Assembly: GCA_016699305.1 (NCBI GenBank)
Contig: CP064970.1
Location: 522,066 to 586,065 of the forward strand
Reading direction: 5' to 3'
Length of the DNA stretch: 64,000 nucleotides
Origin: Alphaproteobacteria bacterium
GTDB taxonomy: Bacteria; Pseudomonadota; Alphaproteobacteria; GCA-016699305
Shown here: positions 23,922 through 57,720 of the stretch, one piece after another
Numbering within the stretch: position 1 is the stretch's first letter
Layout of the letters: each line of letters begins with the position of its first letter
Notes under the pieces: model-generated
Database searches by the model: none
The model's input: only the letters and a program-made list of their open reading frames with translations
Told to the model about the DNA's origin: nothing
Translations under genes and position numbers: made by a program

Positions 23922-24431
23922 TTATTGACGACCGCGCGCGGCAAGAACGCGCGACACTTGACCGGCCGGAGCCTGCAACACGCCCACCATCTTCGAGGCG
24001 GGAGCCTGCAACAGGCCGATCAGCTTGCCGCGCAGAGTGTCCAGCGGCGGCAGACTGGCCAACGCGTTGATATCGCTGGGCGTCAGACGGCGTTCGTCCA
24101 AAGAGCCGCCGATCATGGTCAGCTTACCCTTGAAGTCCTTGTTGAATTCAACCAGAGCCTTGGCGGCAGCCAGCGGGTCTTGCGACCAGGCCAGGGCGCG
24201 TGGGCCCTTGAACAAATCGCTCAAGCCTTCATGCGGGGTGCCCTTGACCGACAAAGCCGCCAGTTTGTTCTTGATGATGCGCCAGTTCGCGCCGGCCTTG
24301 CGGCTGCGGCGACGCAATTCCGTCTGCTGAGAAGCCGACAGATTGCCCGGCTCCACCACCAGCACCAAACGGGCCGACGGCAAATCTCCGTGCAGAGATT
24401 CGACTTTGTGTTTTTTGGTCGCGCGATCCAT
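23922..24431 (-). CDS. rplJ: 50S ribosomal protein L10
   Basis: MDRATKKHKVESLHGDL…LRGKLIGLLQAPASKMVGVLQAPAGQ is a typical L10. ATG at 24431. Confidence 0.95.
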   Translation of the reverse strand: MDRATKKHKVESLHGDLPSARLVLVVEPGNLSASQQTELRRRSRKAGANWRIIKNKLAALSVKGTPHEGLSDLFKGPRALAWSQDPLAAAKALVEFNKDFKGKLTMIGGSLDERRLTPSDINALASLPPLDTLRGKLIGLLQAPASKMVGVLQAPAGQVSRVLAARGRQ

Positions 24432-24900
24432 CTGAGTACCCTTCAGTTGGCCATGAATTCCAATCGGCACACGAGAACGCATCACGCATTCCCATGCGGC
24501 TTTTCACCTCTAACCATGCAAGAAAGTCGGGCCGACGTCCGCAAAACACCTAGCCGCGCTATACAAAAGCCAGCGGGCCGAAAGTGAACGTCCTATCAAG
24601 CCCATCCTTCTGCGCCGGACATTAAGCCACCCCCAAGAGGCTGGCACCGGCGGTCTTCGGACGACGAGCGCCCCCGTTATAGCGCCCTCACTCGGACAAT
24701 GCCAAGCTTTTTTTATATCGTGCTCAACCGAGCAAAATGAGACAGCGAGATGTCGCCAATGTTCGAGAAATGGTATAGGCCGCTTTGGTTCAAAAAAGCG
24801 CCTAGGCATGGTCTTTCTGAAGGTGGGCGTCAGTGGCGCAGCCACCACATCGCTCGCCAAGCCATAGGCGAAGCCTCTTCTCACAGGGTATGAATTCGAG
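24432..24900 (-). promoter_or_regulatory. rplJ upstream leader / promoter region (expected L10(L12)4 autoregulatory leader)
   Basis: By position only: about 470 nt non-coding upstream of rplJ. The leader structure was not modelled. Confidence 0.25.
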
Positions 24901-24965
24901 TAAGTTCGGCGGAGTGGTGCCAGCCGCCCTGCTTAGAATCATGTCGATGACGACAGAGGTCAGAT

Positions 24966-25739
24966 GTGTATGCTGAAACCGCCCCCCCCCCGCGCTGGGT
25001 ATCGGTGTCTGAATTAGGCATTGTCATCGGGCCGATTCTGTGGGTGGTGGCGATTCTGGCTGTCCTGGCCGCAGCCATTGCAGCGGGGTCGGGCGCATTC
25101 AATGGCGATATTTCCGCAGTCAGCGCTAAAGCCCAAGCATCGGCTATTCTTGGATATACCCATGAAGTAAAACTCGCCGTGGATAGAGTGATTGCTAAGG
25201 GCTGCACCGATACGCAAGTCAGTTTTGAAAACCCTATCGTCAGCGGATACACAAACCCGAACGCGCCTTCGGATAAATCCTGCCATGTCTTTGATGTCAA
25301 TGGCGGCGGTATTTCATATAAATATCCGCCACCACAAGTATTGGATGCAAGTCTTTCTGGATATACGGGGTATGGACAATACTTTTTCACGAGCACACTA
25401 TCTGTTATAGGTATTGGGAATGGTCGAACAACAACATCATTAATTATGATGATGCCACATTTGAATAAAAAAATTGCAAATAAAATTAACGAAATAAACA
25501 ATATAACTGGTAGCATTGGCGGGATTTCATTATGTAATTTTCATTACACTTCGGCTAACTACTTCATAGGAAATTACTATACTCCATGCGGCGGCTTTTT
25601 CGATGCAGATGGGAATGCTCGACAACAATACGGAACAGAAGCAACGGCTAATGTTGCGGGGCATACATCTGGTTGCGTTCTCAACAACCACGCCGGGTCG
25701 TTTGAAGCAAACTGTTTCAAAGTTCTTATTGCACGCTGA
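24966..25739 (+). CDS. hypothetical exported / membrane-anchored Gly-Tyr-Asn-rich Cys-containing protein; candidate phase-variable surface protein
   Basis: 257 aa. One N-terminal hydrophobic helix (GIVIGPILWVVAILAVLAAAIAAG) is followed by a pilin-like amphipathic segment (SAKAQASAILGYTHEVKLAV), then a G/Y/N/T-rich region with 6 Cys. The gene starts at GTG 24966, and a C10 tract sits in codons 6-9. The 3' third has low-GC codon usage. Confidence 0.5.
   Translation: MYAETAPPPRWVSVSELGIVIGPILWVVAILAVLAAAIAAGSGAFNGDISAVSAKAQASAILGYTHEVKLAVDRVIAKGCTDTQVSFENPIVSGYTNPNAPSDKSCHVFDVNGGGISYKYPPPQVLDASLSGYTGYGQYFFTSTLSVIGIGNGRTTTSLIMMMPHLNKKIANKINEINNITGSIGGISLCNFHYTSANYFIGNYYTPCGGFFDADGNARQQYGTEATANVAGHTSGCVLNNHAGSFEANCFKVLIAR
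24982..24991. repeat. poly-C(10) homopolymeric tract (poly-G on the opposite strand)
   Basis: The tract encodes the PPP at codons 7-9 of ORF 24966..25739. Length 10 is the only value consistent with the tool translation TAPPPRW. ATGs at 24964 and 24970, with GAGG at 24955-58, lie in the +1 frame relative to the long ORF. Confidence 0.8.
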
Positions 25740-25883
25740 TTCATTAATTATTGCTACGATCAACTTTTATCAATCTTGTTCGTCTCGTCTGCCAGCTTCC
25801 TCGTTCCCCTGCCGAACCATCTTTTGACTTTTCCGTTTTAATGGGGCGTGGGATGGCTGCCCTAGCTTTTTCCAGACCATTCT

Positions 25884-25924
25884 TGGCCACTCCTACGGGC
25901 CTCTACAGGCTGTAGGAGTGGCCA
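25884..25924. repeat. perfect 12-13 bp inverted repeat (ggccactcctac / gtaggagtggcc) with a 15-nt loop between convergent island genes
   Basis: Read directly from sequence. No flanking U-tract on either strand. Could be a factor-independent hairpin terminator or a protein-binding palindrome. Confidence 0.55.
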
Positions 25925-25959
25925 ATGGCTCAAGCCTTCACTGTGCGAAGCAAGAAAAT

Positions 25960-26610
25960 TTATAGTCTGGCTTCTGGAACAGCCGGTCTTTGCCTCATCA
26001 CACCGGGATGCATGGAGGTGGGCTGATCCTGCGGATCATTCACCATCATGGTTTTAAACACCGCGAGAGAATCTTTGTCCTTGATCCGCGAAGCCAAGAG
26101 GTCTTGCCACGTCTGAGCCACCACGGGGCATGCCCTGACAGCGACGGGAAAAACACGAATAACCCCTTTTTCGATCTGGCTGAACGCCACGCGATGATCA
26201 GGCTGCGCGATCATGAACATCGCCGTTGACGCCTGCTTAAAATACTGCCCGACCAATCCATCTATCGTGGTGAATTTAGGTCTGCAACCCCTTCTAATAA
26301 TAGCTTTCTTGACCGTTGCCGTTCTTAGCTTGCCACTATTGTCTGCGGCATCCTTCACCAAGTTCTCGATCTGCCGCAGGCCTAACATTTGCTGACGAAC
26401 CACATCCGAATCGGAATACCCCAAATGGCCCGGACTGCCGGGGACCTCAGAACGCGATTCTCGCATTGCCGAGGCCAATACACCGCTTTGTTGGTCTTGA
26501 TCAGTCATTGAACACCAGCTCAACATGGGGTTAACCCTTTCCATGAAGTGCGGCGCGTGGGGCGCGTCATAGGACGCGAGATCGACGTCGCGTGAGACAT
26601 TGAACGCCAC
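25960..26610 (-). CDS. hypothetical protein
   Basis: 216-aa ORF with GC-rich, plausible coding composition. No recognisable motif. The start codon is uncertain. Confidence 0.35.
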   Translation of the reverse strand: MAFNVSRDVDLASYDAPHAPHFMERVNPMLSWCSMTDQDQQSGVLASAMRESRSEVPGSPGHLGYSDSDVVRQQMLGLRQIENLVKDAADNSGKLRTATVKKAIIRRGCRPKFTTIDGLVGQYFKQASTAMFMIAQPDHRVAFSQIEKGVIRVFPVAVRACPVVAQTWQDLLASRIKDKDSLAVFKTMMVNDPQDQPTSMHPGVMRQRPAVPEARL

Positions 26611-26921
26611 AACCTTGCCATCGTTCCGTTAACGGGGGCAGAAACTTCATTTTGAGATCGTTCCTTGCAGCGCTTCAGATAGGACAACTCCCGTTCCATA
26701 TCTGATGGATACACTATTCCTTAGAGATCGATTCGTTCAAAGAAGATATAAAAACATGGATAGATTTCAGTGCCTGCCTTTAGCTTGCAACTATTCTTTA
26801 CCAAGATCACGGCACTATTCCGCATATCATTGTATGTATATCATTTATTTATTTATAACCATGGGTTGTTAATATGTCTAACTGTTGGCCCCAGATAGAA
26901 CCTGTCTAAGGAAATGAAGAC

Positions 26922-27233
26922 ATGATGATTTTACCCGCCATTGTGGACTTCGACACAGCAAACTCATTACGCATAAAGATTGATAAAATATCAACCCCTG
27001 ACATGGCTTTCTGCTGTGACGGTCACAATGTTTTGAAGCTAACAACATGGGGACTTCAAGCTCTGCTGGCTGCCGACCGCGATCTGCAGGCGAATGGAAA
27101 GAAACTTGGCCTCACGCGCATCTCCCCCGAATTCAGCCAAGCCTTGGAAGATTTTGGGTGCAAGGAGCAGATGGAACGCTGGAGTCAGATATCGAACCTG
27201 GATGCCCCCTCAAGCAAAGGATCATCGGCATGA
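26922..27233 (+). CDS. STAS-domain protein (anti-sigma-factor-antagonist-like), first gene of the che operon
   Basis: 103 aa. The SpoIIAA-like pattern (LPAIVDFDTANSLR…CDGHNVLKL…GLQALLAADRDLQANGKKLGLT) matches the STAS proteins that lead alphaproteobacterial che operons. Its stop overlaps the cheY ATG (ATGA). Confidence 0.6.
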   Translation: MMILPAIVDFDTANSLRIKIDKISTPDMAFCCDGHNVLKLTTWGLQALLAADRDLQANGKKLGLTRISPEFSQALEDFGCKEQMERWSQISNLDAPSSKGSSA

Positions 27234-27595
27234 GCAAGAAAGTGCTGGCGGTTGACGACTCGCAGACCATGCGCGAGATGGTGGCCTTCGCGTTGCGGCA
27301 AGCAGGCTATGACGTGCTGTTGGCCGAGGACGGGCAAAAGGCGCTGGGCGTGCTGGGCAGCAGTCCCGTGGACTGCGTGATCACCGATCTAAACATGCCG
27401 CAGATGGACGGCATCGGCCTGATTCAAGCGTTACGAGCGCATCCCACGCATCGCGGCACCCCCATTCTGATGCTGACCACGGAAAGCGACGACCAGAAGA
27501 AACAAGCGGGTAAGGCCGCCGGAGCCACCGGCTGGCTGGTCAAGCCCTTCAATCCCGAGAAACTGCTGGATGTCGTGCGGCGGGTTTCGGGTTAA
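27230..27595 (+). CDS. cheY: chemotaxis response regulator CheY
   Basis: MSKKVLAVDDSQTMREMV… with receiver residues D(DD), D57-like ITDLNMPQMDG and K(LVKPF). 121 aa. Confidence 0.9.
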   Translation: MSKKVLAVDDSQTMREMVAFALRQAGYDVLLAEDGQKALGVLGSSPVDCVITDLNMPQMDGIGLIQALRAHPTHRGTPILMLTTESDDQKKQAGKAAGATGWLVKPFNPEKLLDVVRRVSG

Positions 27596-27604
27596 GAGCG
27601 CGTC

Positions 27605-29617
27605 ATGACAGACACCCCCTTCGACCAATTCCGTCGGACTTTTTTCGAAGAATGCGCCGATCTTCTGACCATGGCCGAAGGCGAGCTGCGCGGGCTTGAC
27701 CTGAACGCGCCCAATTCGGAAAGCTTACACGCCATTTTCCGCGCCGTGCATTCCATCAAGGGCGGTGCCGGGGCTTTCGGTTTTGATCGCCTGGTGGCTT
27801 TCGCGCATGGGTTCGAATCCACGTTGGACGCGCTACGCGATCATCGCTTACGCCTTGACCGCGACCACCACGATCTGATCATGCGGGCTTTCGATGTATT
27901 GGCCGATCTGGTGCAGGATGCGCACGGCGAATCCCCCATGCAAGGCGGCAGTGAGCAGGACATTGCCGATGCCCTGACCCGTTGGCGCGGCGACACCGCC
28001 TCCCCTGCCCCGCTCTCGGCCAGCCCTGCCGCGCATGAGAAAAATTCTGGCGGCGGTTGCTATCTCATCCGCTTTACGCCCAACACCCAAATGCTGGCCA
28101 AGGCCAATGAACCCTTACTGATTCTGCGGGAATTAAAACGTCTGGGACAGGCCACCATCACCGTTGATCTATCGCGCCTGCCGGGCCTATGCGAAATGTC
28201 GTCACAAGAAAGCTATTTATCTTGGACCATCGAGTTACACACCGCGCATGATCTGGATCGCGTGCGCGAGACCTTTGAGTTTGTCCTGGACGACTGCGAG
28301 CTTTCCATCACCGAGCACGACACGCGCAAAACGGAGGCACCCGCCGCCGAAGGGACAGAAGCGCCGCGCGGCCAGACCAGCGCCGCATCGCCCACATCCA
28401 TGCGGGTGGATATCGACAAGGTCGATCGCCTGGTCAATATGGTGGGCGAGATCGTCATCACCCAAGCCATGTTGTCGCAGCAGATCGCGCATATGCAAAT
28501 CGACAAACACCAGGAGCTGATGACCGGCATCGAGCAAATGGCCTGGCATACCCGCGAATTGCAAGAAAGCGTGATGGCCATTCGCGCGCAACCGGTGCGC
28601 TCGGTGTTTCAGCGTATGCCGCGCCTGGTGCGCGAGCTGTCCTTCGCCCTGGGCAAAGAGGTGCGCCTGGTGACCGAGGGGGAAAACACCGAAGTGGACA
28701 AGACGGTGATCGAACAGCTATCCGATCCCTTGACTCACCTGATCCGCAACAGCGTGGACCATGGCATCGAAACGCCCGACCAACGCGAAGTGGCCGAGAA
28801 ACCGCGCATAGGCACCATCACGCTGTCGGCGGCGCATCGGCACGGACGGATCGTGATTGCCGTCGATGATGACGGCGCTGGCTTGAATCTGGAACGCATC
28901 CGCGCACGCGCGATCGAGCGCGGCCTGATCGACGCGCAAGCCGATCTGGATCAAGAGGCCATCTTAAACCTCATCTTCCTACCCGGTTTCTCCACCGCCG
29001 CCGCCGTCACGAACATCTCCGGTCGCGGCGTGGGCATGGACGTGGTCAAGCGCAATGTGCAGGCCATGGGTGGGCGCGTGACGGTGGAGTCGCGCCCAGG
29101 CCAGGGCGCGCGTTTTACCTTATCCCTGCCCCTGACACTGGCCGTTCTGGACGGCATGTTGGTGCGGGCGGGCGGCGAGCGTTATGTCATTCCCTTGGCT
29201 GGCATCATCGAAAGCATCTGTCCCGCGCCGGGCATGGTGGCCAAGCTTGTCGGATGTGGAGACGTGCTGCATATCCGGGGTGAATATGTGCGCCTTATTC
29301 CCCTACATACCGCCTTTAATCTGCATGACGACGCTCAGACCAACGGACTGGTCGTGCTGGTCGAGGCCGAAGGCGGACGCCGCGCCGGATTTATCGTTGA
29401 CGAGATCATAGGACAACAGCAGGTTGTGATTAAAAGCATGGAGACAAACTATACACACATCCCGGGAATATCTGCCGCCACCATCTTGGGCGACGGGCGC
29501 GTGGCTCTTATCCTTGATATTTCCGGCTTGATGGATATGAGGATGATGAATCCGTCCTCTTCATTCGCGCCCGATACGACCGCCTATCCCCTGTCATCCG
29601 ATTGCCTACCATCGTAG
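27605..29617 (+). CDS. cheA: chemotaxis histidine kinase CheA
   Basis: HPt (AVHSIKGGAGAFGF), a dimerisation domain, HATPase (DDGAGL…GRGVGMDVV) and a C-terminal CheW-like domain. 670 aa. Confidence 0.95.
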   Translation: MTDTPFDQFRRTFFEECADLLTMAEGELRGLDLNAPNSESLHAIFRAVHSIKGGAGAFGFDRLVAFAHGFESTLDALRDHRLRLDRDHHDLIMRAFDVLADLVQDAHGESPMQGGSEQDIADALTRWRGDTASPAPLSASPAAHEKNSGGGCYLIRFTPNTQMLAKANEPLLILRELKRLGQATITVDLSRLPGLCEMSSQESYLSWTIELHTAHDLDRVRETFEFVLDDCELSITEHDTRKTEAPAAEGTEAPRGQTSAASPTSMRVDIDKVDRLVNMVGEIVITQAMLSQQIAHMQIDKHQELMTGIEQMAWHTRELQESVMAIRAQPVRSVFQRMPRLVRELSFALGKEVRLVTEGENTEVDKTVIEQLSDPLTHLIRNSVDHGIETPDQREVAEKPRIGTITLSAAHRHGRIVIAVDDDGAGLNLERIRARAIERGLIDAQADLDQEAILNLIFLPGFSTAAAVTNISGRGVGMDVVKRNVQAMGGRVTVESRPGQGARFTLSLPLTLAVLDGMLVRAGGERYVIPLAGIIESICPAPGMVAKLVGCGDVLHIRGEYVRLIPLHTAFNLHDDAQTNGLVVLVEAEGGRRAGFIVDEIIGQQQVVIKSMETNYTHIPGISAATILGDGRVALILDISGLMDMRMMNPSSSFAPDTTAYPLSSDCLPS

Positions 29618-29705
29618 GCTTGCCCTTTAAGTTTTTTCAATTCTTTGTTGTCATCTTTTGTAATCAAAAGTTGAGTTACATCTCTTGATGAAAGGGGTTA
29701 CGGAA

Positions 29706-30269
29706 ATGGCTTTGGAAGCAAATCCCCCACATTCCGAAGATGGCGCGAGCCGACAGGAGCAAGGGTCCACCCAGGCTCGGCAATATGTCACCTTCACGAT
29801 CAACAGCGAGGAATACGGCGTCGATATCATGGACGTGCGCGAGATCAAAGGCTGGACGCATGCCACGCGCCTGCCGAACGCGCCTTCCTATGTGCGCGGC
29901 GTCATCAATCTGCGCGGACTGATGCTGCCGATTTTCGATCTGCGTTCGCGCTTTGGCCAAGGCGAGACGGACGCCAGCAAGACCCATGTGATTGTGATCG
30001 TCGCCGTCGGCAGCCGCACCATCGGCATTCTGGTGGACGCCGTGTCGGATATCCTTTCGATCACCCAAGACCAAATCCGCCCCGCGCCGGAATTCGAGCA
30101 AGGCCATGAAGCCGCGTATCTGCACGGATTGGTCAGCGTCAGCGAACGCATGGTGGCTCTGCTGGCCTTGGACCGACTCTTCGACCTGGCCGGCGTGCGC
30201 GAAGGAATATTGGACGCAGCCGTTGCCGAAGCCGTCCCGCAGGCCGCCGCCCAGCAAGCCATCGCCTAA
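29706..30269 (+). CDS. cheW: chemotaxis coupling protein CheW
   Basis: QYVTFTINSEEYGVDIMDVREIKGW…VRGVINLRG is a CheW domain. ATG at 29706 follows AAAGGGG; the tool ORF starts at 29685. Confidence 0.9.
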   Translation: MALEANPPHSEDGASRQEQGSTQARQYVTFTINSEEYGVDIMDVREIKGWTHATRLPNAPSYVRGVINLRGLMLPIFDLRSRFGQGETDASKTHVIVIVAVGSRTIGILVDAVSDILSITQDQIRPAPEFEQGHEAAYLHGLVSVSERMVALLALDRLFDLAGVREGILDAAVAEAVPQAAAQQAIA

Positions 30270-30305
30270 CCATCCTTACTCATCATCCTTTCCAGGAGAA
30301 CAGAC

Positions 30306-32750
30306 ATGTCATCACTTCACGCCTCGGCCACGCCCGCCCGCGCCGGACTTCTAAACCGCCTGCGCATCAGCCATCGCCTAACCTTGGGCTTCTTATTGGT
30401 CTTGGCGATCATGGCCGTCAGCAGCGGCATTACCGCCTATTCCGCCGTCCAGTCGTCGAAGATATCGTCGTCCTTAAAGGAAACCCGCATCCCCAGCGCC
30501 CTATTGCTAACCGACATAGAAACCATGGTCAGCGTGGCGGAATTCAAAATGTCCGACTACATCGCCGACAAGGGCGTAGCTTACAAAGAGGATTTCAAAT
30601 CCTATATCGAAAAAGTCCACGCCGATGTCGAAAAAATGGATGAACAAGTTAAATCCTGGACTTTCCCCGAGCAAATCGAAAACTGGCAGGACATCAAAAA
30701 ACGCATGGAAGTCGTTTATCGCTCATTCGACGACACGCTTAAACTCTACGATTCGGGCGACAAGGCCAAAGCCAGCGAGACGTTTTACAAGGAAGTCCGC
30801 CAGTCCGTCAGCCAGATGAAAGACGTTTTATCCGGCAAGAAAGGCAAATCGGGCTTTCGTGAAGGGGGCCTGACCGATGATCGGGTCGAGGTCCTGAACA
30901 CCGCAGGCGTCGAATTGGTCGATAGCATGCAGACCATGATCCGCCTGACATTGCTATTGCTGGCCATTGGGATCACGACGGGACTGACCGTTGCCTTCTT
31001 CACCGCCCGCGCCCTCACCCGCCCGATCAACAGCATGAAGGACGCCATGGCGCGGATCGCCGCCAGCGACGTCGAGGTTCAGATCCAAGGCATGAATCGC
31101 GGCGATGAAATCGGTGACATGGCCCGCGCCCTGGCCGCCATCCGCGAGATCGGCATCAACGCCGCCAAGGCCAAGAGCGCCCTGGATAATGTCGGTGCCA
31201 ATGTGATGATGACCGAAAACGACGGCAAAGTGGCCTATGCCAACCGCTCGCTGGGCGACATGTTCCGTCACGGCGAGTCCGATATCCGCAAGGAGATCAG
31301 CGGCTTCGACACGTCGCGCCTGTCCGGCATGTCGATCGAGGAGTTCCAGCGTTTCTGCGCCAATCCGCATGAATCCCTGGCACGGGTCAATGCGCGTTCC
31401 CAAAACCGTGTCGTGGTGGGTGGACGCACCTATGACCTGACCGCGAACCCCGTCACCAACGACAAGGGCGAACGGCTGGGCACGGTGATCGAATGGGTGG
31501 ACATGACTCAGCAGCTCAGCGTGGAGAACGAGATCGCCGAACTGGTGGATAGCGCCGTCAAGGGCGACCTAAGCCGGCGCATGGATCTGGCCGGCAAGGA
31601 CGGGTTCATGCGTAAGCTGGGCGAGGGAATGAACAATCTCACCCGCACCACCAACGACGCTTTGGAAGATATCGCCAGCTTCTTGGACGCTCTCTCGCGC
31701 GGCGACCTCACACGCCGCATGGAACGCGCCTATCAAGGCATGTTCGAGCGCATCAAGAACGACGCCAACGGCTCGGCGCAGCGCTTGGCCGAGATCGTGG
31801 GACGGATCATCGAGGCTTCCACCACCATCTCCACCGCGGCGGGCGAGATCGCATCGGGCAGCAGCGACCTTTCGGCCCGAACCGAGCAACAAGCGTCCAA
31901 TCTTGAAGAAACCGCAGCGTCCATGGAGCAGCTGGCCGCCACCGTGCGCCAGAACTCCGAAAACGCCCAACAGGCCAATAAGCTTGCTTCCGGCGCGCGC
32001 GGCTCGGCCGAGAACGGAGGCAAGGTGGCGCAAGACGCCATCGCCGCCATGGGACGCATCGAGACCTCCTCGCGCAAGATATCGGACATCATCGGCGTGA
32101 TCGACGAAATCGCCTTCCAGACCAACTTGCTGGCCTTGAACGCCGCCGTCGAGGCCGCAAGGGCGGGCGACGCGGGCAAGGGCTTTGCCGTGGTCGCCAC
32201 CGAAGTCCGCGCCCTGGCCCAGCGTTCGGCTCAGGCCTCGCGCGAGATCAAAGCGCTGATCGTGGATAGCGGCAATCAGGTCAAGGACGGCGTGTCCCTG
32301 GTCCGCAATGCGGGCGATGCGCTGAACGAGATCGTCGACTCCATCAAGCGCGTGGCCGATATCGTGGCGGAGATCGCGGCGGCCAGCAGCGAACAGGCAT
32401 CGGGCCTAGAGCAGGTGAACAACGCCGTCTCACAAATGGACGAGATGACGCAAAAGAACGCCGCCCTGGTCGAAGAAAGCGCAGCAGCCGCAGGTTCCTT
32501 GAACGAGCAATCCGCCAACTTGACCGAGATCATGGGCTTCTTCCAAACCGAACAAGGCCGCGTCAAAGCCACGGCACCCAAGCCCATCACCGCAGCCGCG
32601 CCCGAACCACGCGCCAGGACACAAACAATGGCCGCTGCCAGAACCGGCACACGTTCATCCGCGCGCAATGCCCCGGCCAGCGCAAACGGCAAAACCCCGC
32701 CCAAAAGCCTAGCCGCCGCCTCAGGCGAAGGCGAATGGAAGGAGTTTTAA
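30306..32750 (+). CDS. methyl-accepting chemotaxis protein (TM, HAMP, PAS-like segment, MCP signalling domain)
   Basis: 814 aa. The highly conserved MCP hairpin ([45 protein letters not shown]) and HAMP repeats are present. Confidence 0.9.
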
Positions 32751-32777
32751 GCAGAGCAAGAGGGGACGCGCGTCGCC

Positions 32778-33671
32778 ATGCTGATGAACCTGCCCGATGG
32801 AATCGATTCTGTCCCCATGGCAGAGCATGCGACCCGTCCCCGTGAATTCGCCTTCACTCCTCATGACTTCACTTATCTGGCCGAGTTGGTCACGCAGCAC
32901 ACCGGCATCCGTCTGCCGCCCGAAAAGAAAGAAATGCTGTATGGCCGCTTGTCGCGCCGATTGCGCCATCTGGGGCTTGGAAGTTTTGGCGACTATCGCG
33001 CCTTACTGGAAGGCCCCGATGGCGAGCAGGAAATCACGCACACCATCAACGCCCTGACCACCAACCTGACCGGGTTCTTTCGTGAAGCGCATCACTTCGA
33101 CCATCTGGCCAAAGTGGCGTTGCCACAGATTTTAGAAGCTCAAAGCCAAAGCGGCACGCGCCGCCTGCGCCTATGGTCGGCGGGTTGCTCGACAGGCCAG
33201 GAACCCTATTCCATCGCCATGACCTTGCTGGCGAGCATGCCACAGCGCAATCAGTGGGACGTGCGGATCCTGGCGACAGATCTGGACAGCCAGGTTCTGC
33301 AGCATGCGCGCGCGGGTTGCTATGATCGTGGATTGGCTGAAAAAATTCCCGCGAATTGGCGATCCGCCTATGCCGAAAGCCATCCAAACGGCCAGATGCG
33401 CATGGCCAGGTCCTTGCGAGAGATCATCACCTTCAATCACCTAAACCTGATGCATCCTTGGCCGATGCGCGGACCTTTCAGCGTCATTTTTTGCCGCAAC
33501 GTGGTGATCTATTTCGACAAGCCAACCCAAAGAATATTATTCGACCGCATGGCCGACCTGCTGACCCCGCGCGGCTATTTGTATATCGGCCATTCCGAAA
33601 CCTTGTTCAACGTCTGCGACCGCTTTGAGGCATGCGGAAAAACCATATATCGCAAAAAGGAAGACGCATGA
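32778..33671 (+). CDS. cheR: chemotaxis protein methyltransferase CheR
   Basis: SAM-MTase motif (LRLWSAGCSTGQEPYSIAM) and the CheR N-terminal helical domain. Confidence 0.93.
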   Translation: MLMNLPDGIDSVPMAEHATRPREFAFTPHDFTYLAELVTQHTGIRLPPEKKEMLYGRLSRRLRHLGLGSFGDYRALLEGPDGEQEITHTINALTTNLTGFFREAHHFDHLAKVALPQILEAQSQSGTRRLRLWSAGCSTGQEPYSIAMTLLASMPQRNQWDVRILATDLDSQVLQHARAGCYDRGLAEKIPANWRSAYAESHPNGQMRMARSLREIITFNHLNLMHPWPMRGPFSVIFCRNVVIYFDKPTQRILFDRMADLLTPRGYLYIGHSETLFNVCDRFEACGKTIYRKKEDA

Positions 33672-34300
33672 GCTTGGTCACGACCATCGAACGCCGCGCA
33701 CCGCGCGATAAGCAACCTATTTTCGTATCGCGTTACTTCGACTCTCAAATCGACGGCATGGCCGTGACGGTCCTTCCCGCACAACATGCCATCAGCGCCA
33801 GTCCAGATGAGGTCCTTGTGACTGTGCTGGGAAGCTGCGTGGCCGCCTGCATCCACGACCCAGTGATGAATCTGGGCGGGATGAACCATTTCATGCTGCC
33901 GGGCGAGGCCATGAGCAATTGGAGCGACGCGAACCGCGAGATGCGCTACGGCCACACGGCCATGGAAAAGCTGATCAACGACCTGCTCTCGCGCGGGTGC
34001 CGCAAAGAACGCTTTGCCATCAAGCTGTTCGGCGGTGCCAGCGTCATTCAATCGCCGATCCCCGTGGGCGAACAGAACATTATCTTCGTGCGGCGCTATC
34101 TGCGCGACGAAGGGCTTAGCATCATGGCCGAAGACCTGGGCGGATTTCATGCGCGGCGCATCTATTTTCGCGCCAGCGCGGGCAAGGTGGACCGCCTACT
34201 TCTGAAGCGCCAGGAAGACGAGACGATCTTCACCAACGAACTGTCCTTGCGCCAGACTCTGCGTCAAGCCGACATGTCTGGCAGCGTGGAGTTGTTCTGA
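33668..34300 (+). CDS. cheD: chemoreceptor glutamine deamidase CheD
   Basis: …VLGSCVAACIHDPVMNLGGMNHFMLP… is the CheD catalytic Cys region. The start overlaps the cheR stop (ATGA). Confidence 0.8.
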   Translation: MSLVTTIERRAPRDKQPIFVSRYFDSQIDGMAVTVLPAQHAISASPDEVLVTVLGSCVAACIHDPVMNLGGMNHFMLPGEAMSNWSDANREMRYGHTAMEKLINDLLSRGCRKERFAIKLFGGASVIQSPIPVGEQNIIFVRRYLRDEGLSIMAEDLGGFHARRIYFRASAGKVDRLLLKRQEDETIFTNELSLRQTLRQADMSGSVELF

Positions 34301-35352
34301 TGGCCGTGCGCGTGCTGATTGTGGACGACTCCGCCCTGATGCGCCAAATGCTGACCAGCCTGTTGCATGGCGACGATCTGCATGTGGTGGGCGCGGCCGA
34401 GAACCCCTTGGTGGCACGAGAGATGATCAAGGCCCTAAACCCCGACGTGTTGACCCTGGACGTGGAAATGCCGCGCATGGACGGGTTGGATTTCTTGTCG
34501 CGGCTGATGTCCTTGCGACCCATGCCGGTTGTGATGATCTCGTCCTTGACCCAGGAACACGCCGAAGCCGCCTTACGCGCCCTAGAACTAGGGGCGGTGG
34601 ATTGCATCGCCAAACCACAAACGGATCTGGCCAAGGGAATGGAGGCCATGCGCGAGGATATGCGTAGCCGAATCCTGGCCGCCGCCAAAGCGCGTGTTCG
34701 ACCTTTGACCTCGCGCACGCCCAAGACCAAACCAGCGCATGGCGCGGTGCCGTTTACCTCCAGCGAGAAGATCGTGGTGATAGGCGCATCCACCGGCGGG
34801 GTGGAGGCCCTGACCGAAGTGCTCTGCGCCCTGCCCGCCGCAAGTCCGGGCATTTTGGTGGTTCAGCATATGCCGCCTTTGTTCACGGCCTCATTCGCCA
34901 AACGCCTGGACGGACTGGCCGCGCTAAGCGTTGTCGAAGCGCGCGACGGCACACGCATCATGCCCGGACATGTGCATATCGCGCCGGGCAGCATGCATCT
35001 GGAACTTGCGCGTAGCGGCGCGGATTATATGTGCCGCGTTCATGACGGGCCCTTGGTGTCGGGGCATCGGCCTTCGGTGGATGTCTTATTTCATTCCGCC
35101 GCGCGTTGTGCCGGAGCCAACGCGCTGGGCGTCATCCTAACCGGCATGGGCCGCGACGGCGCGGAAGGTCTGTTAAAAATGCGCCAAACCGGCAGCGCGA
35201 CGGTGGGCCAAGACGAATCCAGCTGCGTCGTCTATGGCATGCCCAAAGCCGCCTATGACCTGGGCGGCGTGGCCCAACAACTGCCCCTTGATCGCATCGC
35301 CGAATCCATCCTGTCATATTCCCACGAAGCACGTCAGGCCTTGCGCGTTTAA
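34300..35352 (+). CDS. cheB: chemotaxis methylesterase/deamidase CheB
   Basis: N-terminal REC (VLIVDDSALMR…LDVEMPRMDG) plus a C-terminal CheB methylesterase domain (GASTGG…GMPKAA). Confidence 0.95.
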   Translation: MAVRVLIVDDSALMRQMLTSLLHGDDLHVVGAAENPLVAREMIKALNPDVLTLDVEMPRMDGLDFLSRLMSLRPMPVVMISSLTQEHAEAALRALELGAVDCIAKPQTDLAKGMEAMREDMRSRILAAAKARVRPLTSRTPKTKPAHGAVPFTSSEKIVVIGASTGGVEALTEVLCALPAASPGILVVQHMPPLFTASFAKRLDGLAALSVVEARDGTRIMPGHVHIAPGSMHLELARSGADYMCRVHDGPLVSGHRPSVDVLFHSAARCAGANALGVILTGMGRDGAEGLLKMRQTGSATVGQDESSCVVYGMPKAAYDLGGVAQQLPLDRIAESILSYSHEARQALRV

Positions 35353-49818: not shown

Positions 49819-49992
49819 TTACGGGAAAAGGCTTAACAAACGCTGATAGAAGGTCTGATCAATCTTCGTGCCCAGACCGCTTAGCGCGCCAAGAATGGCG
49901 ATCGAAACCATGCCCGCGACCAAGGCGTATTCGATGGATGTCGCGGCGGCTTCATCTTTGAATAATGCTTTAAAGTCTAGGAGTTCGTACAT
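49819..49992 (-). CDS. Flp/Fap family type IVb pilin precursor
   Basis: 57 aa, MYELLDFKALFKDEAAATSIEYALVAGMVSIAILGALSGLGTKIDQTFYQRLLSLFP, carries the Flp motif (TSIEYALVA). It is below the ORF-track length cutoff. Found by reading the reverse strand. Confidence 0.75.
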   Translation of the reverse strand: MYELLDFKALFKDEAAATSIEYALVAGMVSIAILGALSGLGTKIDQTFYQRLLSLFP

Positions 49993-50044: not shown

Positions 50045-50092
50045 CAAAAAAACTCCCGCCGACGGGGGGGCATAGAGGGGCCCCCCCGCGGC
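50045..50092 (-). terminator. rho-independent terminator between the two flp genes
   Basis: G7…C7 stem extended by gccg/cggc (about 12 bp) with a 10-nt loop (50058-50092). The minus-strand RNA continues GGGAG then U7 (plus-strand A7 at 50046-52). Confidence 0.5.
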
Positions 50093-50129: not shown

Positions 50130-50282
50130 CTTATGGAAGCGCGGCGTCGACCTTGCTAAAGGTGTTCGACAGTTTCGGACCAAGGGCTGTCAACACACCG
50201 ACGATCGCAACGGCAATCAGGGCAGCGATCAAGCCATATTCAATGGCGGTGGCGCCCGATTCATCTCTTAGCATCTTCATCA
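50130..50282 (-). CDS. Flp/Fap family type IVb pilin precursor
   Basis: 50 aa, MMKMLRDESGATAIEYGLIAALIAVAIVGVLTALGPKLSNTFSKVDAALP, with a canonical G/ATAIEYG prepilin-peptidase site. Below the ORF-track cutoff. Confidence 0.75.
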
Positions 50283-50283
50283 T

Positions 50284-50700
50284 GGGACATTCCTCCGTTC
50301 CCTAGTTGACCGACGGTACCGTACTGATTTATTCGATGGGTCTTTCAAACCCACGATGTCATCATAGCGTTACAGTACTTAAATAATCGTAAAAAAACCG
50401 AACAATCATCATTAATATGCAGTAAATTCTTAGATAAAATTCTATTTCAATTTTATTTAAAGTCAGTTAATTATAGTATTACTTGATATAAGCAATATTT
50501 TTAATTAGAATATTTTTATCATTGTACTAATATTATCATATAAAGACAGGATATGTCATAGATAATGTTACATTAAATTTGATTTATTCCAATCGATCCA
50601 TACCTTAAATATATTTCATATTTTTTTATAACTGGAGTGACATTTCCATTCATTATGGAAAAGCGGGAACTTCTTTTTAGAGATTCCATTGAAGCAACGC
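50284..50700 (-). promoter_or_regulatory. extremely AT-rich (about 25% GC) upstream region of the flp pilin genes; probable promoter and regulatory region
   Basis: About 400 bp of A/T-rich sequence with many TATA/TTAA runs, directly 5' of flp gene 2. The ORF 50573..50947(-) drawn through it is unlikely to be real. Confidence 0.35.
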
Positions 50701-52515: not shown

Positions 52516-52908
52516 ATGTATCAACGCACCACGCGCAGTATCAGCGTCAGCGTCCAGCCGATTTTCTTGGAGGACGAGTCGGAGCCCGACAGCAATCGCT
52601 ATGTCTGGGCTTACCATATCCGGATCGAGAATAAAGGCCGCGAGACGGTCCAGCTGCGCCAACGCTATTGGAAGATCACCGACGCGCATGGCCATACCGC
52701 CGAACTGCGCGGCGCGGGGGTCGTGGGTGAGCAACCCGTTTTGAACCCAGGCGAAAGCTTTGAATACACCAGCGGAACCCCATTGACGACGCCCACCGGA
52801 ATCATGCTGGGCAGCTATGAGATGTCAACCCAGCAAGGGGAGACCTTCGAAGTCCCAATCCCGCCCTTTTCATTGGACAGTCCGCATCATCCGATGGTCA
52901 GGCATTAG
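52516..52908 (+). CDS. apaG: ApaG (DUF525) protein
   Basis: …YVWAYHIRIENKGRETVQLRQRYWKITDAHGHTAELRGAGVVGEQPVLNPGESFEYTSGTPL… is a very typical ApaG. Confidence 0.9.
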   Translation: MYQRTTRSISVSVQPIFLEDESEPDSNRYVWAYHIRIENKGRETVQLRQRYWKITDAHGHTAELRGAGVVGEQPVLNPGESFEYTSGTPLTTPTGIMLGSYEMSTQQGETFEVPIPPFSLDSPHHPMVRH

Positions 52909-53654
52909 AACGGCATGATGACGTCCAAGACCTGCTGACCGTAACGCGGTTGTTGCACGTCGATGATCTGGCCACGCCCACCATACGAGACTCGGGCTTC
53001 GGCGATCTGGTCGTAATTCACCGAATTGGCCGAGCTGATATCCTCGGGCCGCACAACGCCGGCCACGGTCAATTCACGCATTTCGTAGTTCACCACGATT
53101 TGTTGTTTCCCTTGTAGGACCAGATTTCCATTCGGGAGGACCTGGGTAATCATCGCGGCCACGCGCAATTGAATCGTCTCGCCGCGATCAATTTCGCCCG
53201 AGCCGGAATTGCTGGTTTTGCTGCTCAGATCCACCAGTTTTTCAGGGTCCACCGCATCGGGGAAATATTTGGCCAACTTACTTTCAAAGCCCCATAGGCT
53301 GGGCATGCCCGCGCTGTCGCTATTGTCGCGGCCACGCTTGGTCTTATTCGACATCTTGGCCTTTTCATCCAAGTTGATATTGATGGTCAAGATATCCCCC
53401 ACCCTACTGGCACGCTGGTCACGGAAAAATGCGCGCGAGCCTGCCCGCCACAACGAATTGGGCTGACGATTATCGGGCATCGGCGTGGGCATGGGCAGGC
53501 TGACCGTTTGCGCCTGAGCGGGCGGAGGCGCGATCTGCGCCAGCTTTGGCGCGGAGCCGATCTCCTCGAACCGCGAACCGGCATTGCATCCGGGCAAGGC
53601 CAGGACGGCAATCAAGGCAGCCGTACCCACGGCGCGGCACGAGAAAGGCTTCAT
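52905..53654 (-). CDS. flgH: flagellar L-ring lipoprotein FlgH
   Basis: Lipobox (LPGC) and the FlgH core (…GDILTININ…NGNLVLQGKQQIVVNYEMRELTVAGVVRPEDI…). Confidence 0.9.
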   Translation of the reverse strand: MKPFSCRAVGTAALIAVLALPGCNAGSRFEEIGSAPKLAQIAPPPAQAQTVSLPMPTPMPDNRQPNSLWRAGSRAFFRDQRASRVGDILTININLDEKAKMSNKTKRGRDNSDSAGMPSLWGFESKLAKYFPDAVDPEKLVDLSSKTSNSGSGEIDRGETIQLRVAAMITQVLPNGNLVLQGKQQIVVNYEMRELTVAGVVRPEDISSANSVNYDQIAEARVSYGGRGQIIDVQQPRYGQQVLDVIMPF

Positions 53655-54430
53655 GGAATATCCCCTTGTGTCTGTTGAATCTGGGCAGTTTGACGGCTCT
53701 CTTGCGGCAGATTGACCTCGACCAAACCGCTGCCTATCACGACGGCCTCGATGGTGCGGTTGCTTTGCGTATTCAAGATGCGTACGACCTCGCCCTTAGC
53801 GCCATCTTGTTGCGCGCGGCCTTGCATCGACATGTGCAAAACGGGGGAGCGCACTTCCACCGTCACCGGCTTGCCGCGCAAGACCAGGCGTTCGGCCTGC
53901 ACATCAGCGCGGCGCAGAGGTTGACCGACCAACAAGGCACGGCGCGCCTCCTTACCGATCAACGAACCGGCATCCTGGATGGCATCTCCCGACACGCGAT
54001 CGGCGGGCCATAGCTGGTCTTCAAGGTCCACGGCGCGCACCACCTCGCCCAATTCGATCCGGCGCACAGGAACGGGAAGGCTGATTTGCGTGTTCACGCG
54101 ACCCGTCACCGTCACCACATCCTCACCCGCCGTCAGGCTGGCAGTGAAGAAATTGCGAGATTTCTCATAAGTGATATCCGCAACGCGCGCCATGCCATGC
54201 CCATCGGCAGGCAGCTTTAGACTGATCGTGCTTTGGCCGGGCAAGACGGTCCAGGACGCGCCGTCCACTTTGTCATGCAAGGCTTCCGTCAACAGGCCCA
54301 CCAACGCGGCGCGATCCAGGCTGACCCGGTTATCAGCGCCCGTTGCGATCTGCGGCGCGCCAAACATGACCAAGGCCAACACAGCCATGATCTCGAATCT
54401 AAGTGCTCTTGCTATCTGCCTTCGTGTCAT
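53651..54430 (-). CDS. flgA: flagellar P-ring assembly chaperone FlgA
   Basis: Signal peptide plus a C-terminal SAF/FlgA domain (…VLRGKPVTVEVRS…GEVVRILNTQSNRTIEAVVIG…). Overlaps the flgH start by 4 nt. Confidence 0.75.
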   Translation of the reverse strand: MTRRQIARALRFEIMAVLALVMFGAPQIATGADNRVSLDRAALVGLLTEALHDKVDGASWTVLPGQSTISLKLPADGHGMARVADITYEKSRNFFTASLTAGEDVVTVTGRVNTQISLPVPVRRIELGEVVRAVDLEDQLWPADRVSGDAIQDAGSLIGKEARRALLVGQPLRRADVQAERLVLRGKPVTVEVRSPVLHMSMQGRAQQDGAKGEVVRILNTQSNRTIEAVVIGSGLVEVNLPQESRQTAQIQQTQGDIP

Positions 54431-54457
54431 GTCAGCCCCCGAATGCTTTCTTCACGA

Positions 54458-55243
54458 TTAGCGGAGATTGCTTACTTCCTTGGACATTTCGTCGGCCGTC
54501 CGTATCACGCGCGAGTTCATCTCATAGGCGCGTTGGGCGGTGATGAGATTGGTGATCTCGCTGACGATGTTGACGTTCGACGTTTCCAAAGAACCTTGCA
54601 CAACATTGCCAAATCCCACTGCCTGCGGATTGCCCACCACAGGCGAACCCGAAGCCGGGGTTTCGCGCAACAGATTCTCTCCCAAGGATTCGAGACCGGC
54701 GGGGTTGGGAAATGTGGCCAATTGCAGTTGCCCGACATTGCTGGGCGTCGTCTGACCATCAATTTTCGCCTGAATTTGTCCGCTGGCATTGATGGTGATG
54801 CCGACTGTCCCGGCGGGAATAGTCGCCTGAGGAAGAACGGGATAACCGTCTGCCGAGACGATTGCGCCTTCGGCATTGACCTGGAAGGAACCAGCCCGGC
54901 TATAGGCGGTTGTTCCATCGGGCATCTGCACTTGGAAGAATCCCCGACCGTTGATGGCCATGTCCAAGGGATTATCGGTCACGGTGAAATTGCCTTGCTC
55001 GTTGATGCGATACACCGAGGCCGTTTTGACACCCGAACCAAGCTGAATGCCCGAAGGCAAAATGGTGCCCGCATCCGATGATGTCGAACCAACGCGACGA
55101 ACCTGCTGATACAACAGATCTTGAAACTCCGCGCGTTGGCGCTTGAAACCTGTGGTGGACATATTGGCGATATTGTTGGAAATGACTTCCACATTGGTCT
55201 GCTGAGCCAGCATGCCGGTGGCGCCGATATTCATCGTCCTCAT
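54458..55243 (-). CDS. flgG: flagellar distal rod protein FlgG
   Basis: MRTMNIGATGMLAQQTNVEVISNNIANMSTTGFKRQ… and the C-terminus …LITAQRAYEMNSRVIRTADEM…. Confidence 0.95.
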   Translation of the reverse strand: MRTMNIGATGMLAQQTNVEVISNNIANMSTTGFKRQRAEFQDLLYQQVRRVGSTSSDAGTILPSGIQLGSGVKTASVYRINEQGNFTVTDNPLDMAINGRGFFQVQMPDGTTAYSRAGSFQVNAEGAIVSADGYPVLPQATIPAGTVGITINASGQIQAKIDGQTTPSNVGQLQLATFPNPAGLESLGENLLRETPASGSPVVGNPQAVGFGNVVQGSLETSNVNIVSEITNLITAQRAYEMNSRVIRTADEMSKEVSNLR

Positions 55244-55289
55244 GGCATCAATCCTTCCCTCATCGTGTTCTTACTCGATCTCTGGTTCA

Positions 55290-56012
55290 TCAGGACACAC
55301 GGCCCAGCTGCCGCACGGCATTGCGTTGACGTTCGGTCTCTGTCTCCAGCATGCGCTGGGTCTGCTGGTACGAACGCAAGGCCTCGATCATGCGTGTCAT
55401 TTCCACGACCGGCTGAACGTTCGAGGCCTCGATGACGCCTTGGACAACATGGGAATTTTCGTCTGCCTGCCCGGCCTCGTCGGTCATGAAGTAACCGCTT
55501 TGGTCCGGATCCAAGGCTTGCGGGTTCTCGAAACGGGTTAGTTGCAGTTTTCCTACCTGCCCCAATTCCGTCGAGATGGTCCCATCCCCCTTAATCTGTA
55601 CATTCTGCGCCCCCGTGGGCAGAACGGCGGGGGCATCGCCTTGTAGCAGAACTTTATCGCCCGAAGCCGTGGTCAATTCGCCTTCGCTGTTCAAGGTAAA
55701 GGCGCCCGCGCGCGTGTAACGCTTACCCTCTGCCGTCTGAACAGAAAGCCAAGCATCACCCTGCACAGCCACATCCAAGGCGTTGTCCGTATGCTGCAAG
55801 GGACCGGCGCGATCATCGCGCCAAGTGGCACGATCCAATACAAATTGTAGCGGACGTGTCTCGCCCGGAGGCAGAATGGGCGCATCTTCAGCAACCAGTT
55901 CCTGGCGCTTAAAGCCCGTGGTGTTCATATTGGCCAAATTATTGGCCAGAACATCTATACGCCGCCTTAGGACATCCTGGCGCGACAACGCTATCAGTAA
56001 TGGCGATTCCAT
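55290..56012 (-). CDS. flgF: flagellar proximal rod protein FlgF
   Basis: …DVLANNLANMNTTGFKRQ… and rod C-terminal motif (VQGVIEASNVQPVVEMTRMIEALRSYQ). Confidence 0.9.
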   Translation of the reverse strand: MESPLLIALSRQDVLRRRIDVLANNLANMNTTGFKRQELVAEDAPILPPGETRPLQFVLDRATWRDDRAGPLQHTDNALDVAVQGDAWLSVQTAEGKRYTRAGAFTLNSEGELTTASGDKVLLQGDAPAVLPTGAQNVQIKGDGTISTELGQVGKLQLTRFENPQALDPDQSGYFMTDEAGQADENSHVVQGVIEASNVQPVVEMTRMIEALRSYQQTQRMLETETERQRNAVRQLGRVS

Positions 56013-56625: not shown

Positions 56626-57720
56626 TTAGCCGCCCCCGCCCATGCCGCCGCCTTGGCTTTGTGTGGTTGATAGAACCACGGTAGCATGCATGATCGACAA
56701 CATGGCCCAGACGATCACGCCGGCCACCAATACCATGCCGCCGAACCGCGCGACATTAGCCTGGTTTTGCAGCTCAATGACCTGCTCTTCGATCCATTCA
56801 TGCGTGATCTGCTCAATCACCGTGCCGACATCGCCCCGTTCCGAGAGGATTTCAAGATCCAAAGCCACCATAGGATCGGGAAAGCCAAAGTTGCCAGCGC
56901 GCAGCGCTTCGCCGAGATTGCGACCGCGCAAAACTTCCTGACGCGCTGTGCTTAGACGCTCTTGCAGCCAAGGCGTCGCTTCTTCCTCAAGGATTTCCAG
57001 GGCACGTTTCAAAGGAACCTGAGCGCCCAACAGTGACGATATACCCAGCAAGAAGGCACTGCCTTGCCACACGCGATACCACGACCAAGGAGGGAACTTG
57101 TCGAGTTTCACACGCAGCGATCCGCGCCAATGCGGCAAGGTACTGGCGATCACGGCCATAATCGCGAAGAGCCCCAACAGGGTCCAGATGCCATAATTGT
57201 GGATATAGTCGGACACCATGACCAATCCGCCCATGCTCTCCAACACCGCCTTGGATGCAAGTGTCTTCATCTTGTCGATCAGCACATAGCCGAACATGAA
57301 CAAGACCGCCGAAAGCAGCAGCAGCATGAAGAACGGATAACTGACGGCGTAAATGATGGCCTCTTTCATCTTTCGGGCCTGTTCGCCGATGCTCATAATG
57401 GCACTGAAGGATTTCGAGACGGTGCCCGATTCTTCGCCCGAGCGAATCATGTACAGCTCGGCCACCGGCACCCAGCCCGACATAGCATCCGAAAGCGAAT
57501 CACCGGCGCGATCGCGGCTAAGCCATTCCTGCAAGGCGATCGCCTCGGCCCGGTCAGGCTTTTTTCCCATTTCGGAGTAGTTGTACCAAAGCCGCTCTAA
57601 CGAACGAGACAAAGCCTCGTTCATATTCAGCATACCTTGCAGCTTTCGATAAATGCGCCAACGACGGCGACGATTATTGCGCAACGTCCATTGCGCCATA
57701 CGGCGCCCTAAATCAGCCAT
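56626..57720 (-). CDS. type II secretion / type IV pilus platform protein, GspF/PilC family (two T2SSF repeats)
   Basis: 364 aa, polytopic. Two repeats with the GspF signature (…[15 protein letters not shown]… and …[17 protein letters not shown]…). ATG at 57720 preceded by AGGAGG. Overlaps the upstream ATPase gene's stop. Confidence 0.8.

Follow-up and report, generated by a model that had tools for sequence, protein, structure and literature searches.

The 64,000-nt stretch of DNA analysed here (the window) comes from contig CP064970.1 of a metagenome-assembled genome (MAG) of an alphaproteobacterium, and our subject is a gene in it whose first codons contain a run of ten cytosines (C10). 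The open reading frame (ORF) 24966..25739 on the plus strand starts with GTG and encodes 257 residues. Its product is identical to IPI58_02485 (QQR69552.1), a MAG protein of 'Alphaproteobacteria bacterium'. The homopolymer lies at 24982-24991 on the same strand, with G 24981 on its 5′ side and GCGCTGG on its 3′ side; the sequence from 24940 to 25000 reads CATGTCGATGACGACAGAGGTCAGATGTGTATGCTGAAACCG-C10-GCGCTGGG. C10 is the sole homopolymer longer than 7 nt in the window. Runs of C or G with lengths of 6, 7, 8, 9 and 10 nt occur there 8, 3, 0, 0 and 1 times, respectively, and C10 is an outlier in this distribution. No other contingency-type simple sequence repeat was found in the 64-kb window by Tandem Repeats Finder (TRF).

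The sequence upstream of the run has a particular geometry. One Shine-Dalgarno-like AGAGG precedes three candidate start codons, at a spacing of 4 nt to ATG 24964, 6 nt to GTG 24966 and 10 nt to ATG 24970. The two ATG codons are in one frame (frame 1) and the GTG codon is in frame 0, which is the frame of the ORF at C10. The remaining upstream frame is closed by a TGA codon at 24974-24976, and therefore the tract can be entered from two of the three frames only. On the other side of the tract, both wrong frames reach a stop within 8 codons, so that out-of-frame translation ends after 13-18 codons.

To follow the consequences, in silico versions of the locus with tract lengths from C6 to C15 were translated from every start codon. 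At tract lengths of 7, 10 and 13, the full-length product is obtained from GTG 24966 only. At 8, 11 and 14 it is obtained from ATG 24964 (258 residues at C11) or ATG 24970 (256 residues). At 6, 9 and 12 no start codon gives the full-length product, and only peptides of 12-18 residues are produced. Any change of the tract by +/-1 shifts the frame into the early stops; at C10 it is the ATG frame that ends early, after the 17 residues of MCMLKPPPPRAGYRCLN. Given the shared Shine-Dalgarno sequence, the starts in two frames, the closed third frame and the early stops in the wrong frames, the tract length modulo 3 thus sets three states. A sequence-only reading of this DNA had already described the ten-C run in the first codons, GTG 24966 as the only start of the long ORF at C10, the two ATG codons behind the same Shine-Dalgarno sequence in the other frame, their fusion to the long product at C11 or C8, and the closing of the GTG-initiated frame by any +/-1 change. 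Direct reading of the sequence and the tract series bear out all of these points, and the 17-residue peptide is close to the end 'about 16 codons' into the ATG frame that had been given. In Neisseria phasome work, poly-G/C loci are treated as phase variable from a tract length of at least 9 (PMC5953494). The present run exceeds this threshold and lies within the 5′ end of the ORF.

The same genome carries at least 17 copies of this gene family, i.e. 16 full-size IPI58 proteins and one fragment, IPI58_00470. According to their annotated N-termini, the full-size copies fall into three classes. Two paralogs (class a; P0019 and P0020) have the short leader MRQT[HN]QRG, a type found in essentially all of about 100 homologs from outside this genome and in 130 further representatives. 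Eight copies (class b), including the C10 gene itself, have long, non-canonical leaders (Table 1). The other six (class c) are annotated only from MAILAVLA, where an internal GTG, the first codon of VAILAVLA, lies midway along the transmembrane helix, and lack the invariant G-I-x-I-G-P; their bodies are complete, with 200-250 residues down to the conserved C-terminal VLIxR. This suggests, short of proof, that the class (c) annotations represent out-of-frame but maintained copies. Stretches from PP to PPPPP are present in the leaders of seven copies.

Comparison of the class (b) leaders with the start block provides some clues regarding the behaviour of the tract. P0015, P0042, P0063 and P0072, with leaders of the MCAET/P type, match the frame of GTG 24966, as do leaders of the MYAET/MYA type. 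P0026 (MKPPPPPRWASASE..; MKPPPPP) matches the frame of ATG 24970, which here reads MLKPPPP. The MCAET and MKPPPPP leaders converge on one downstream frame, RW[AV]S[AV]SE, and therefore the tract lengths of these genes must differ modulo 3. Between the close paralogs P0063 and P0072, the difference in the tract is exactly one proline. Past its tract, P0042 has two residues in the ALG.. frame and then returns to the W-V frame, like the outcome of a compensating 1-nt indel. In P0015 and P0026, neither Met nor Val nor Leu occurs in the segment that separates the tract from the conserved Gly, and translation of these two must therefore cross the tract. A leader peptide that is not conserved in an ORF that nevertheless stays open is the pattern expected of a slippery segment in a dispensable leader, and these protein N-termini suggest such a segment.

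Table 1. Features of the C10 locus (window coordinates) and leaders of the class (b) copies in the same genome
Feature	Position	Strand	Basis or remark
Shine-Dalgarno-like AGAGG	24955..24959	+	read from sequence; common to three candidate starts
Dual-frame start block ATGTGTATG	24964..24972	+	sequence and in silico tract series
Leader-coding module, 17 codons at C10	24966..25016	+	blastn and leader comparison; without DNA homology to leaders of outside homologs
TGA closing the third upstream frame	24974..24976	+	sequence; end of ORF 24833..24976
C10, candidate slipped-strand tract; codons 6-10 of the present frame read (A)PPP(R)	24982..24991	+	sequence
Stops of the two wrong frames (TGA 25010-25012, TAG 25015-25017)	25010..25017	+	sequence and in silico series
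Family-homologous part of the gene, stop codon included	25017..25739	+	sequence comparison, AlphaFold2 model, blastn
Conserved non-coding segment right after the gene	25774..25910	+	73-81% identity with plasmid copies
Class (b) leader, C10 gene itself: MYAETAPPPRWVSVSELG			
Class (b) leader: MCAETVIPPRWASASESG			
Class (b) leader: MCAETAPPPALWVLVPQSGLESG			
Class (b) leaders: MCAEPAPPCRV.. and MCAEPAPPPCRV..			
Class (b) leader: MEEAGYTPPPACC..			
Class (b) leader: MKPPPPPRWASASEHGPESG			
Class (b) leader: MYAKIPSASGIG..			

At the DNA level, the 5′ part of the gene is separated from the rest by a sharp boundary. When positions 24400-27100 were compared by blastn with all fetched homolog loci, both plasmid and metagenome, every alignment began at 25017-25019, and 25017 is the first base of the codon for Gly18. 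Upstream of it, none of these loci shows similarity to the Shine-Dalgarno sequence, the start block, the poly-C tract or the next 25 nt. Since the Gly18 codon is precisely where DNA homology sets in, the tract is part of a 5′ module specific to this lineage. Consistently, no poly-proline occurs in the leaders of about 230 outside homolog N-termini (~100 plus 130 representatives), which have the form M-x(3-10)-Q/E-x-G, and in each of 15 genome relatives the 5′ end of the gene is free of homopolymers. A search of metagenome contigs of the Joint Genome Institute (JGI) for C8 followed by 18-48 nt and GGNATYGYNATYGGNCC gave 8 matches, all of them in unrelated genes, and no further copy of the poly-C leader. 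The truncated outside homologs P0107 and P0062 were considered as possible cases of a hidden poly-C frameshift and were rejected: one has a 1-nt insertion in the region coding for the transmembrane helix and the other is a GTG start chosen by the gene caller.

The part of the protein that is shared with outside homologs begins with the invariant Gly18 and an I-x-I-G-P motif, continues through a transmembrane helix (residues 19-41) and a conserved N-domain that extends to about residue 116, and ends with a variable C-domain encoded by AT-rich DNA. C80, C106 and the GG(G) at 113-115 (N-G-G-G motif) are invariant in the N-domain. In the family, a short leader ending in the invariant Gly is followed by I-A-I-G-P-I-L or N-V-L-F-L-I-L and ~20 hydrophobic residues. 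The usual leader, M-x(3-10)-Q/E-R/S-G, is basic, whereas that of the C10 gene is longer (17 residues) and not basic. A word index gave 184 matches, and a search with a family profile built from 94 homologs returned 3,525 cluster representatives from a set of 1.84 billion proteins, with E <= 1e-30 for 535. Judged from these searches, this is a large unannotated protein family. Pfam gave no match above threshold (Pilin was sub-threshold at 13.6 bits versus a cut-off of 22), NCBIfam no match at E <= 1, including the TIGR02532/PS00409 methylation motif, and PHROGs no family member. An additional protein search with the 88-residue N-domain as a query found 7 short fragments only, among them one new paralog fragment, the above-mentioned IPI58_00470.

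The AlphaFold2 model of the product, computed on the family alignment (mean predicted local distance difference test score, pLDDT, 84.8), has a transmembrane helix at residues 22-41, a break at GSGAFNGD, a second helix at 49-77 and a Cys-containing beta domain. The N-terminal helix, the pilin-like segment and the Cys-containing domain that the sequence-only reading had expected are thus all seen in the model. The profile of 94 homologs found no meaningful solved relative in the PDB, and Foldseek found no match to the model in the same database. The N-terminal transmembrane helix and the pilin-like model predict that the product is exported and pilin-like, and it may be a surface protein. The motif G|F/M-x-x-x-E of type IV pilins is absent, the family consensus being G|I-A-I-G-P or G|N-V-L-F with no Glu at +5. 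Because this defining Glu is missing, we call the protein pilin-like rather than a type IV pilin. Readings as a lipoprotein or as a protein with a classical Sec signal were rejected: a lipobox is missing, and a class III-like leader agrees better with the conserved junction between Gly and the hydrophobic residues.

The gene has a foreign composition: the G+C content at third codon positions is 0.55 in its N-half and 0.31 in its C-half, compared to 0.71 in housekeeping genes. It resides in a low-GC island (24486-27000, down to 36-38% versus 57% in the window) that breaks the ribosomal-protein neighbourhood upstream of rplJ. The island sits between rplJ and the che operon and contains, in addition to the pilin-like gene, ORF 25960-26610 on the minus strand, which has no family match. 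A perfect 14-nt inverted repeat with a 15-nt loop (TTGGCCACTCCTAC / GTAGGAGTGGCCAA, 25883-25925) lies between these two convergent genes and may be a bidirectional terminator, though no T-run follows it.

The closest outside homologs, 62-65% identical, are on contigs of 4-5 kb. Five of these (L001, L021, L031, L032 and L033) are mobilizable plasmids of ~4.5 kb with genes for a relaxase (MobA/MobL), a replication protein (TrfA or RepA_C) and a toxin-antitoxin pair of type II (YafQ/RelB or Gp49/HTH), and with the pilin-like gene as the sole cargo. L001 (4,801 bp) and L021 (4,672 bp) are circular, as indicated by their 141-nt terminal overlaps. L001 has been binned into a Hydrogenedentota MAG, probably wrongly. 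No family member was found among PLSDB plasmids, INPHARED phages or IMG/VR. The conserved non-coding segment that follows the gene has ACCATCTTTTGACTTT at 25817-25831. This motif, with the consensus ACC[AG]TCTTTTGA[CT]TTT, is present once here and twice, 159 nt apart, in L001 and L021. The segment may be a recombination or replication-related site; as a structured RNA it was rejected for want of covariation support, and Rfam has no match in the window or around the locus. In L021, a G9 run (2838-2846), a potential slippage site, encodes the invariant N-G-G-G of the plasmid homolog, where the window has GGCGGCGGT. Chromosomal family copies form tandem pairs or triplets in L002, L006, L010, L011 and L015, from MAGs titled Micavibrio sp. 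or Alphaproteobacteria bacterium, and these tandem copies show a second N-terminal variant, G|N-[VA]-[LF]-F-L-I-L-I-A-V-A-L-F-A-A-L.

Taken together, the reading best supported by the above observations is that C10 serves as a translational phase-variation tract of the slipped-strand type within the leader-coding part of a gene for a pilin-like, putative surface protein, a candidate role that we regard as evenly balanced between right and wrong. Replication slippage would change the tract length by +/-1 at high frequency, and all three states would then coexist among the cells of a clonal population; less protein is probably made in the GTG state than in the ATG state. The leader precedes the invariant Gly|I-x-I-G-P junction and could be cleaved like that of a prepilin or could be a plain cytoplasmic tail; in either case the number of prolines would be immaterial to the mature protein. 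In-frame changes of +/-3 might have an effect of their own, speculatively, since an N-terminal PPP may slow translation in an EF-P-dependent manner and such changes could then tune expression. If the same switch module is present on most of the at least 17 paralogs with their differing C-terminal domains, the outcome would be a set of pilus or surface variants that is combinatorial in the manner of Opa.

In a more far-reaching version of this proposal, a lineage-specific 5′ switch module, consisting of one Shine-Dalgarno sequence, starts in two frames, a closed third frame and poly-C, would have been joined to the majority of the chromosomal copies (at least 17) in a pilin-like family that plasmids have spread and whose C-domains vary. 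Each copy would switch independently between ATG-ON, GTG-ON and OFF, giving an Opa-like repertoire that might, for example, vary the specificity of the pilus tip or the surface for prey, partners or phages in a small-genome, motile, possibly predatory (Micavibrio-like) alphaproteobacterium. We put this forward only tentatively, as a possibility that is rather doubtful in its entirety, and the label 'Micavibrio-like' is taken only from the titles of the MAGs that carry family homologs. Ribosomal protein L7/L12 was uninformative as to taxonomic position, its best named matches being Hyphomicrobiales at about 80% identity.

Several points weigh against a role of C10 in phase variation. By composition the run is not very improbable: an independent and identically distributed sequence is expected to contain 0.35 such runs per 64-kb window, C10 or G10 is present in 15 of 100 dinucleotide-preserving shuffles of the window, and at the local codon usage (CCC 40%, GCC 51%) the peptide A-P-P-P is encoded by a pure C run ~8% of the time. 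The significance of the tract comes from its position and its paralogs rather than from its length. That length is known solely as the assembly consensus of one MAG; the species is represented by one genome, and the cluster of protein P0001 has one member. All paralog arguments rest on annotated protein N-termini, and in the outside homolog L021 the gene caller chose the same internal GTG as in the class (c) copies despite an open full frame. No promoter-like site was found upstream of the gene, the scan for promoters and terminators being at background level. Finally, GTG 25005 (MSELG|IVIGP) could permit initiation here independently of the tract.

Some of these points lead to other explanations. 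The run could be a passive homopolymer, i.e. a neutral poly-proline leader in a decaying, recently expanded mobile family, with the differences between paralogs being due to slow indels and pseudogenisation. The foreign composition of the gene, its position in a low-GC island, the carriage of homologs by small plasmids and the modest improbability of C10 all fit such a history, as do IPI58_00470, which is clearly a fragment, and the interrupted tracts of P0015 (VIPP) and P0088 (KIPSAS), which have a decayed look. However, the full open bodies that the six internal-GTG copies keep, down to VLIxR, are unexpected for drifting pseudogenes; the frame of the leader shifts between paralogs while eight copies keep the continuity of the ORF; and a two-frame start block with a closed third frame is a specific arrangement. 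We consider a passive run unlikely, although it deserves serious attention. A wrong consensus length, i.e. a true tract of C11 (or C8) in an ordinary ATG-initiated ORF, would turn the 'GTG-only' state into an artefact of assembly or polishing. Because the genome is a MAG consensus, the choice between C10 and C11 is uncertain. The source is a single MAG contig of 2,060,775 bp with QQR-series protein accessions, and its IPI-prefixed locus tags presumably belong to a Nanopore-based set of activated-sludge MAGs. Long homopolymers are described as the main error class of Nanopore-based assemblies (PMC9262707). Moreover, the leader of P0026, MKPPPPPRW.., is exactly what the C10 locus would encode at C11. 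Nevertheless, rpoB, rpoC and cheA are intact in the window, with no sign of widespread indel errors, and we consider such an artefact distinctly unlikely. The tract and the geometry of the switch would survive an error in length, which bears on the present state and not on the mechanism.

Two further explanations place the control elsewhere. If translation started at the in-frame GTG 25005-25007, with a 5-residue leader ending in the conserved Gly (MSELG|IVIGP..), the tract would lie in the 5′ leader or in a small upstream ORF and would have little effect. This start is not preceded by any Shine-Dalgarno-like sequence (CTGGGTATCG), and the resulting leader would be acidic, as opposed to the basic leader of the family. 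Nor could it be a general rule of the family, as in P0015 and P0026 no codon between the tract and the Gly could serve as a start. Such initiation is very unlikely to be the explanation. Alternatively, slippage of the transcribing polymerase or a frameshift of ribosomes at the C run could provide a constant low level of in-frame product at any length of the DNA tract. Mixing of frames at the RNA or ribosome level has been described for homopolymer-interrupted genes in some small-genome bacteria, and the present genome is small (2.06 Mb) and has its only 10-nt homopolymer of the window near a start codon. However, transcriptional slippage is known mainly at A/T runs, no stimulatory structure or motif was found at the locus, and the dual-frame start block would be left unexplained. 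This explanation has the least to recommend it and we hold it to be highly improbable.

The proposed slipped-strand switching would work by the same mechanism as the poly-G switching of pilC and the CTTCT switching of Opa in Neisseria. The tract of pilC is genic and consists of G(9-20) (PMC5953494). Like the C10 gene, pilC1 and pilC2 have a G/C tract of at least 9 nt inside the ORF of a pilus-related exported protein, and slippage by +/-1 results in an ON/OFF frameshift; the same arithmetic applies to the C10 gene, where it is derived from sequence alone. In contrast to pilC, the C10 gene encodes a pilin-like subunit of an unannotated family and not a PilC/PilY1 homolog, has starts in two frames and hence three states rather than two, and belongs to an uncultured environmental alphaproteobacterium. 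The Opa proteins (11-12 paralogs, CTTCT repeat) are multi-copy surface proteins with variable exposed domains, as the members of the C10 family are predicted to be, and the CTTCT repeat, like C10, is located in the region coding for the leader peptide. Unlike the C10 gene, they have a pentamer rather than a mononucleotide repeat and a beta-barrel rather than a pilin-like product, and the tracts at multiple loci of the C10 family are deduced from the N-termini of paralog proteins (PP to PPPPP), not from DNA. Each opa copy switches on its own, and the number of repeats is neutral for the mature protein (PMC11868660; PMC5953494).

In comparison with type IV pilins and pseudopilins, especially those of type IVb (CofA, TcpA, PilS), the C10 product has no GFxxxE; its +5 position is Pro, positions +1 to +4 are I-A/V-I-G, and its predicted helix is broken at residues 42-48. 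The PilV adhesins of the R64/IncI1 thin pilus presumably resemble the C10 family in being plasmid-associated and pilin-like and in joining C-terminal domains that can be exchanged to an N-terminal part that is conserved. PilV variation, however, arises within a single gene of a large conjugative plasmid, by inversion of a shufflon, whereas the C10 family consists of separate genes, as the sole cargo of ~4.5-kb plasmids, plus many chromosomal copies, probably with a homopolymer.

This kind of mechanism is well known; the novelty lies in the family of genes concerned, in the lineage and in a dedicated leader module that has apparently spread over multiple loci. Homopolymer phase variation is textbook knowledge for host-adapted pathogens and has rarely been documented in environmental uncultured lineages or in Alphaproteobacteria. 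Literature searches, which were not exhaustive, found no description of it in Micavibrio-like or comparable Alphaproteobacteria, in agreement with the sequence-only reading, which knew of none for an alphaproteobacterium of this type. If the proposed switching is real, a whole family of pilin-like paralogs would be under stochastic control by a lineage-specific leader module, and the locus would be a clear example of how a contingency locus originates, namely by the joining of a slippery leader to a mobile adhesin gene. A way would also open to the function of a large, unannotated family of pilin-like proteins (thousands of clusters), whose genes are all that many very small mobilizable plasmids from wastewater and other metagenomes carry as cargo. 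Such loci are also where the consensus of long-read MAGs and automatic calls of start codons are least reliable.

Other genes in the window are related to filaments and motility. On the minus strand, 56626-57720 encodes a type II secretion system platform protein (T2SS-F; 364 residues, two T2SSF stretches), 57708-59981 encodes a long T2SS-E ATPase (757 residues), and 49819-49992 and 50131-50283 are two tandem Flp/Fap pilin genes (57 and 50 residues; Pfam Flp_Fap E 1e-11 and 6e-20). A TadG-like protein with a VWA domain is encoded at 62468-63859, on the minus strand as well. No prepilin peptidase was seen in the 64-kb window. The T2SS-E/F pair, the Flp pilins and the TadG-like protein indicate that the organism builds type IV-family filaments. 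Between the two Flp genes there is a G7...C7 hairpin (50064-50087), and ~550 nt of very AT-rich DNA (~50380-50640) follow. The flagellar genes flgH, flgA, flgG and flgF are located at 52905-56012. Directly 3′ of the low-GC island is a complete chemotaxis operon (26922-35352) encoding a STAS-domain protein, CheY, CheA, CheW, an 814-residue methyl-accepting chemotaxis protein, CheR, CheD and CheB. In the search with rplL, the self-hit was outscored by P0121, a 196-residue L7/L12 with a duplicated C-terminal domain, which is encoded at 864-1454 of an ENA contig (L030) from an unrelated organism with ~74% DNA identity.

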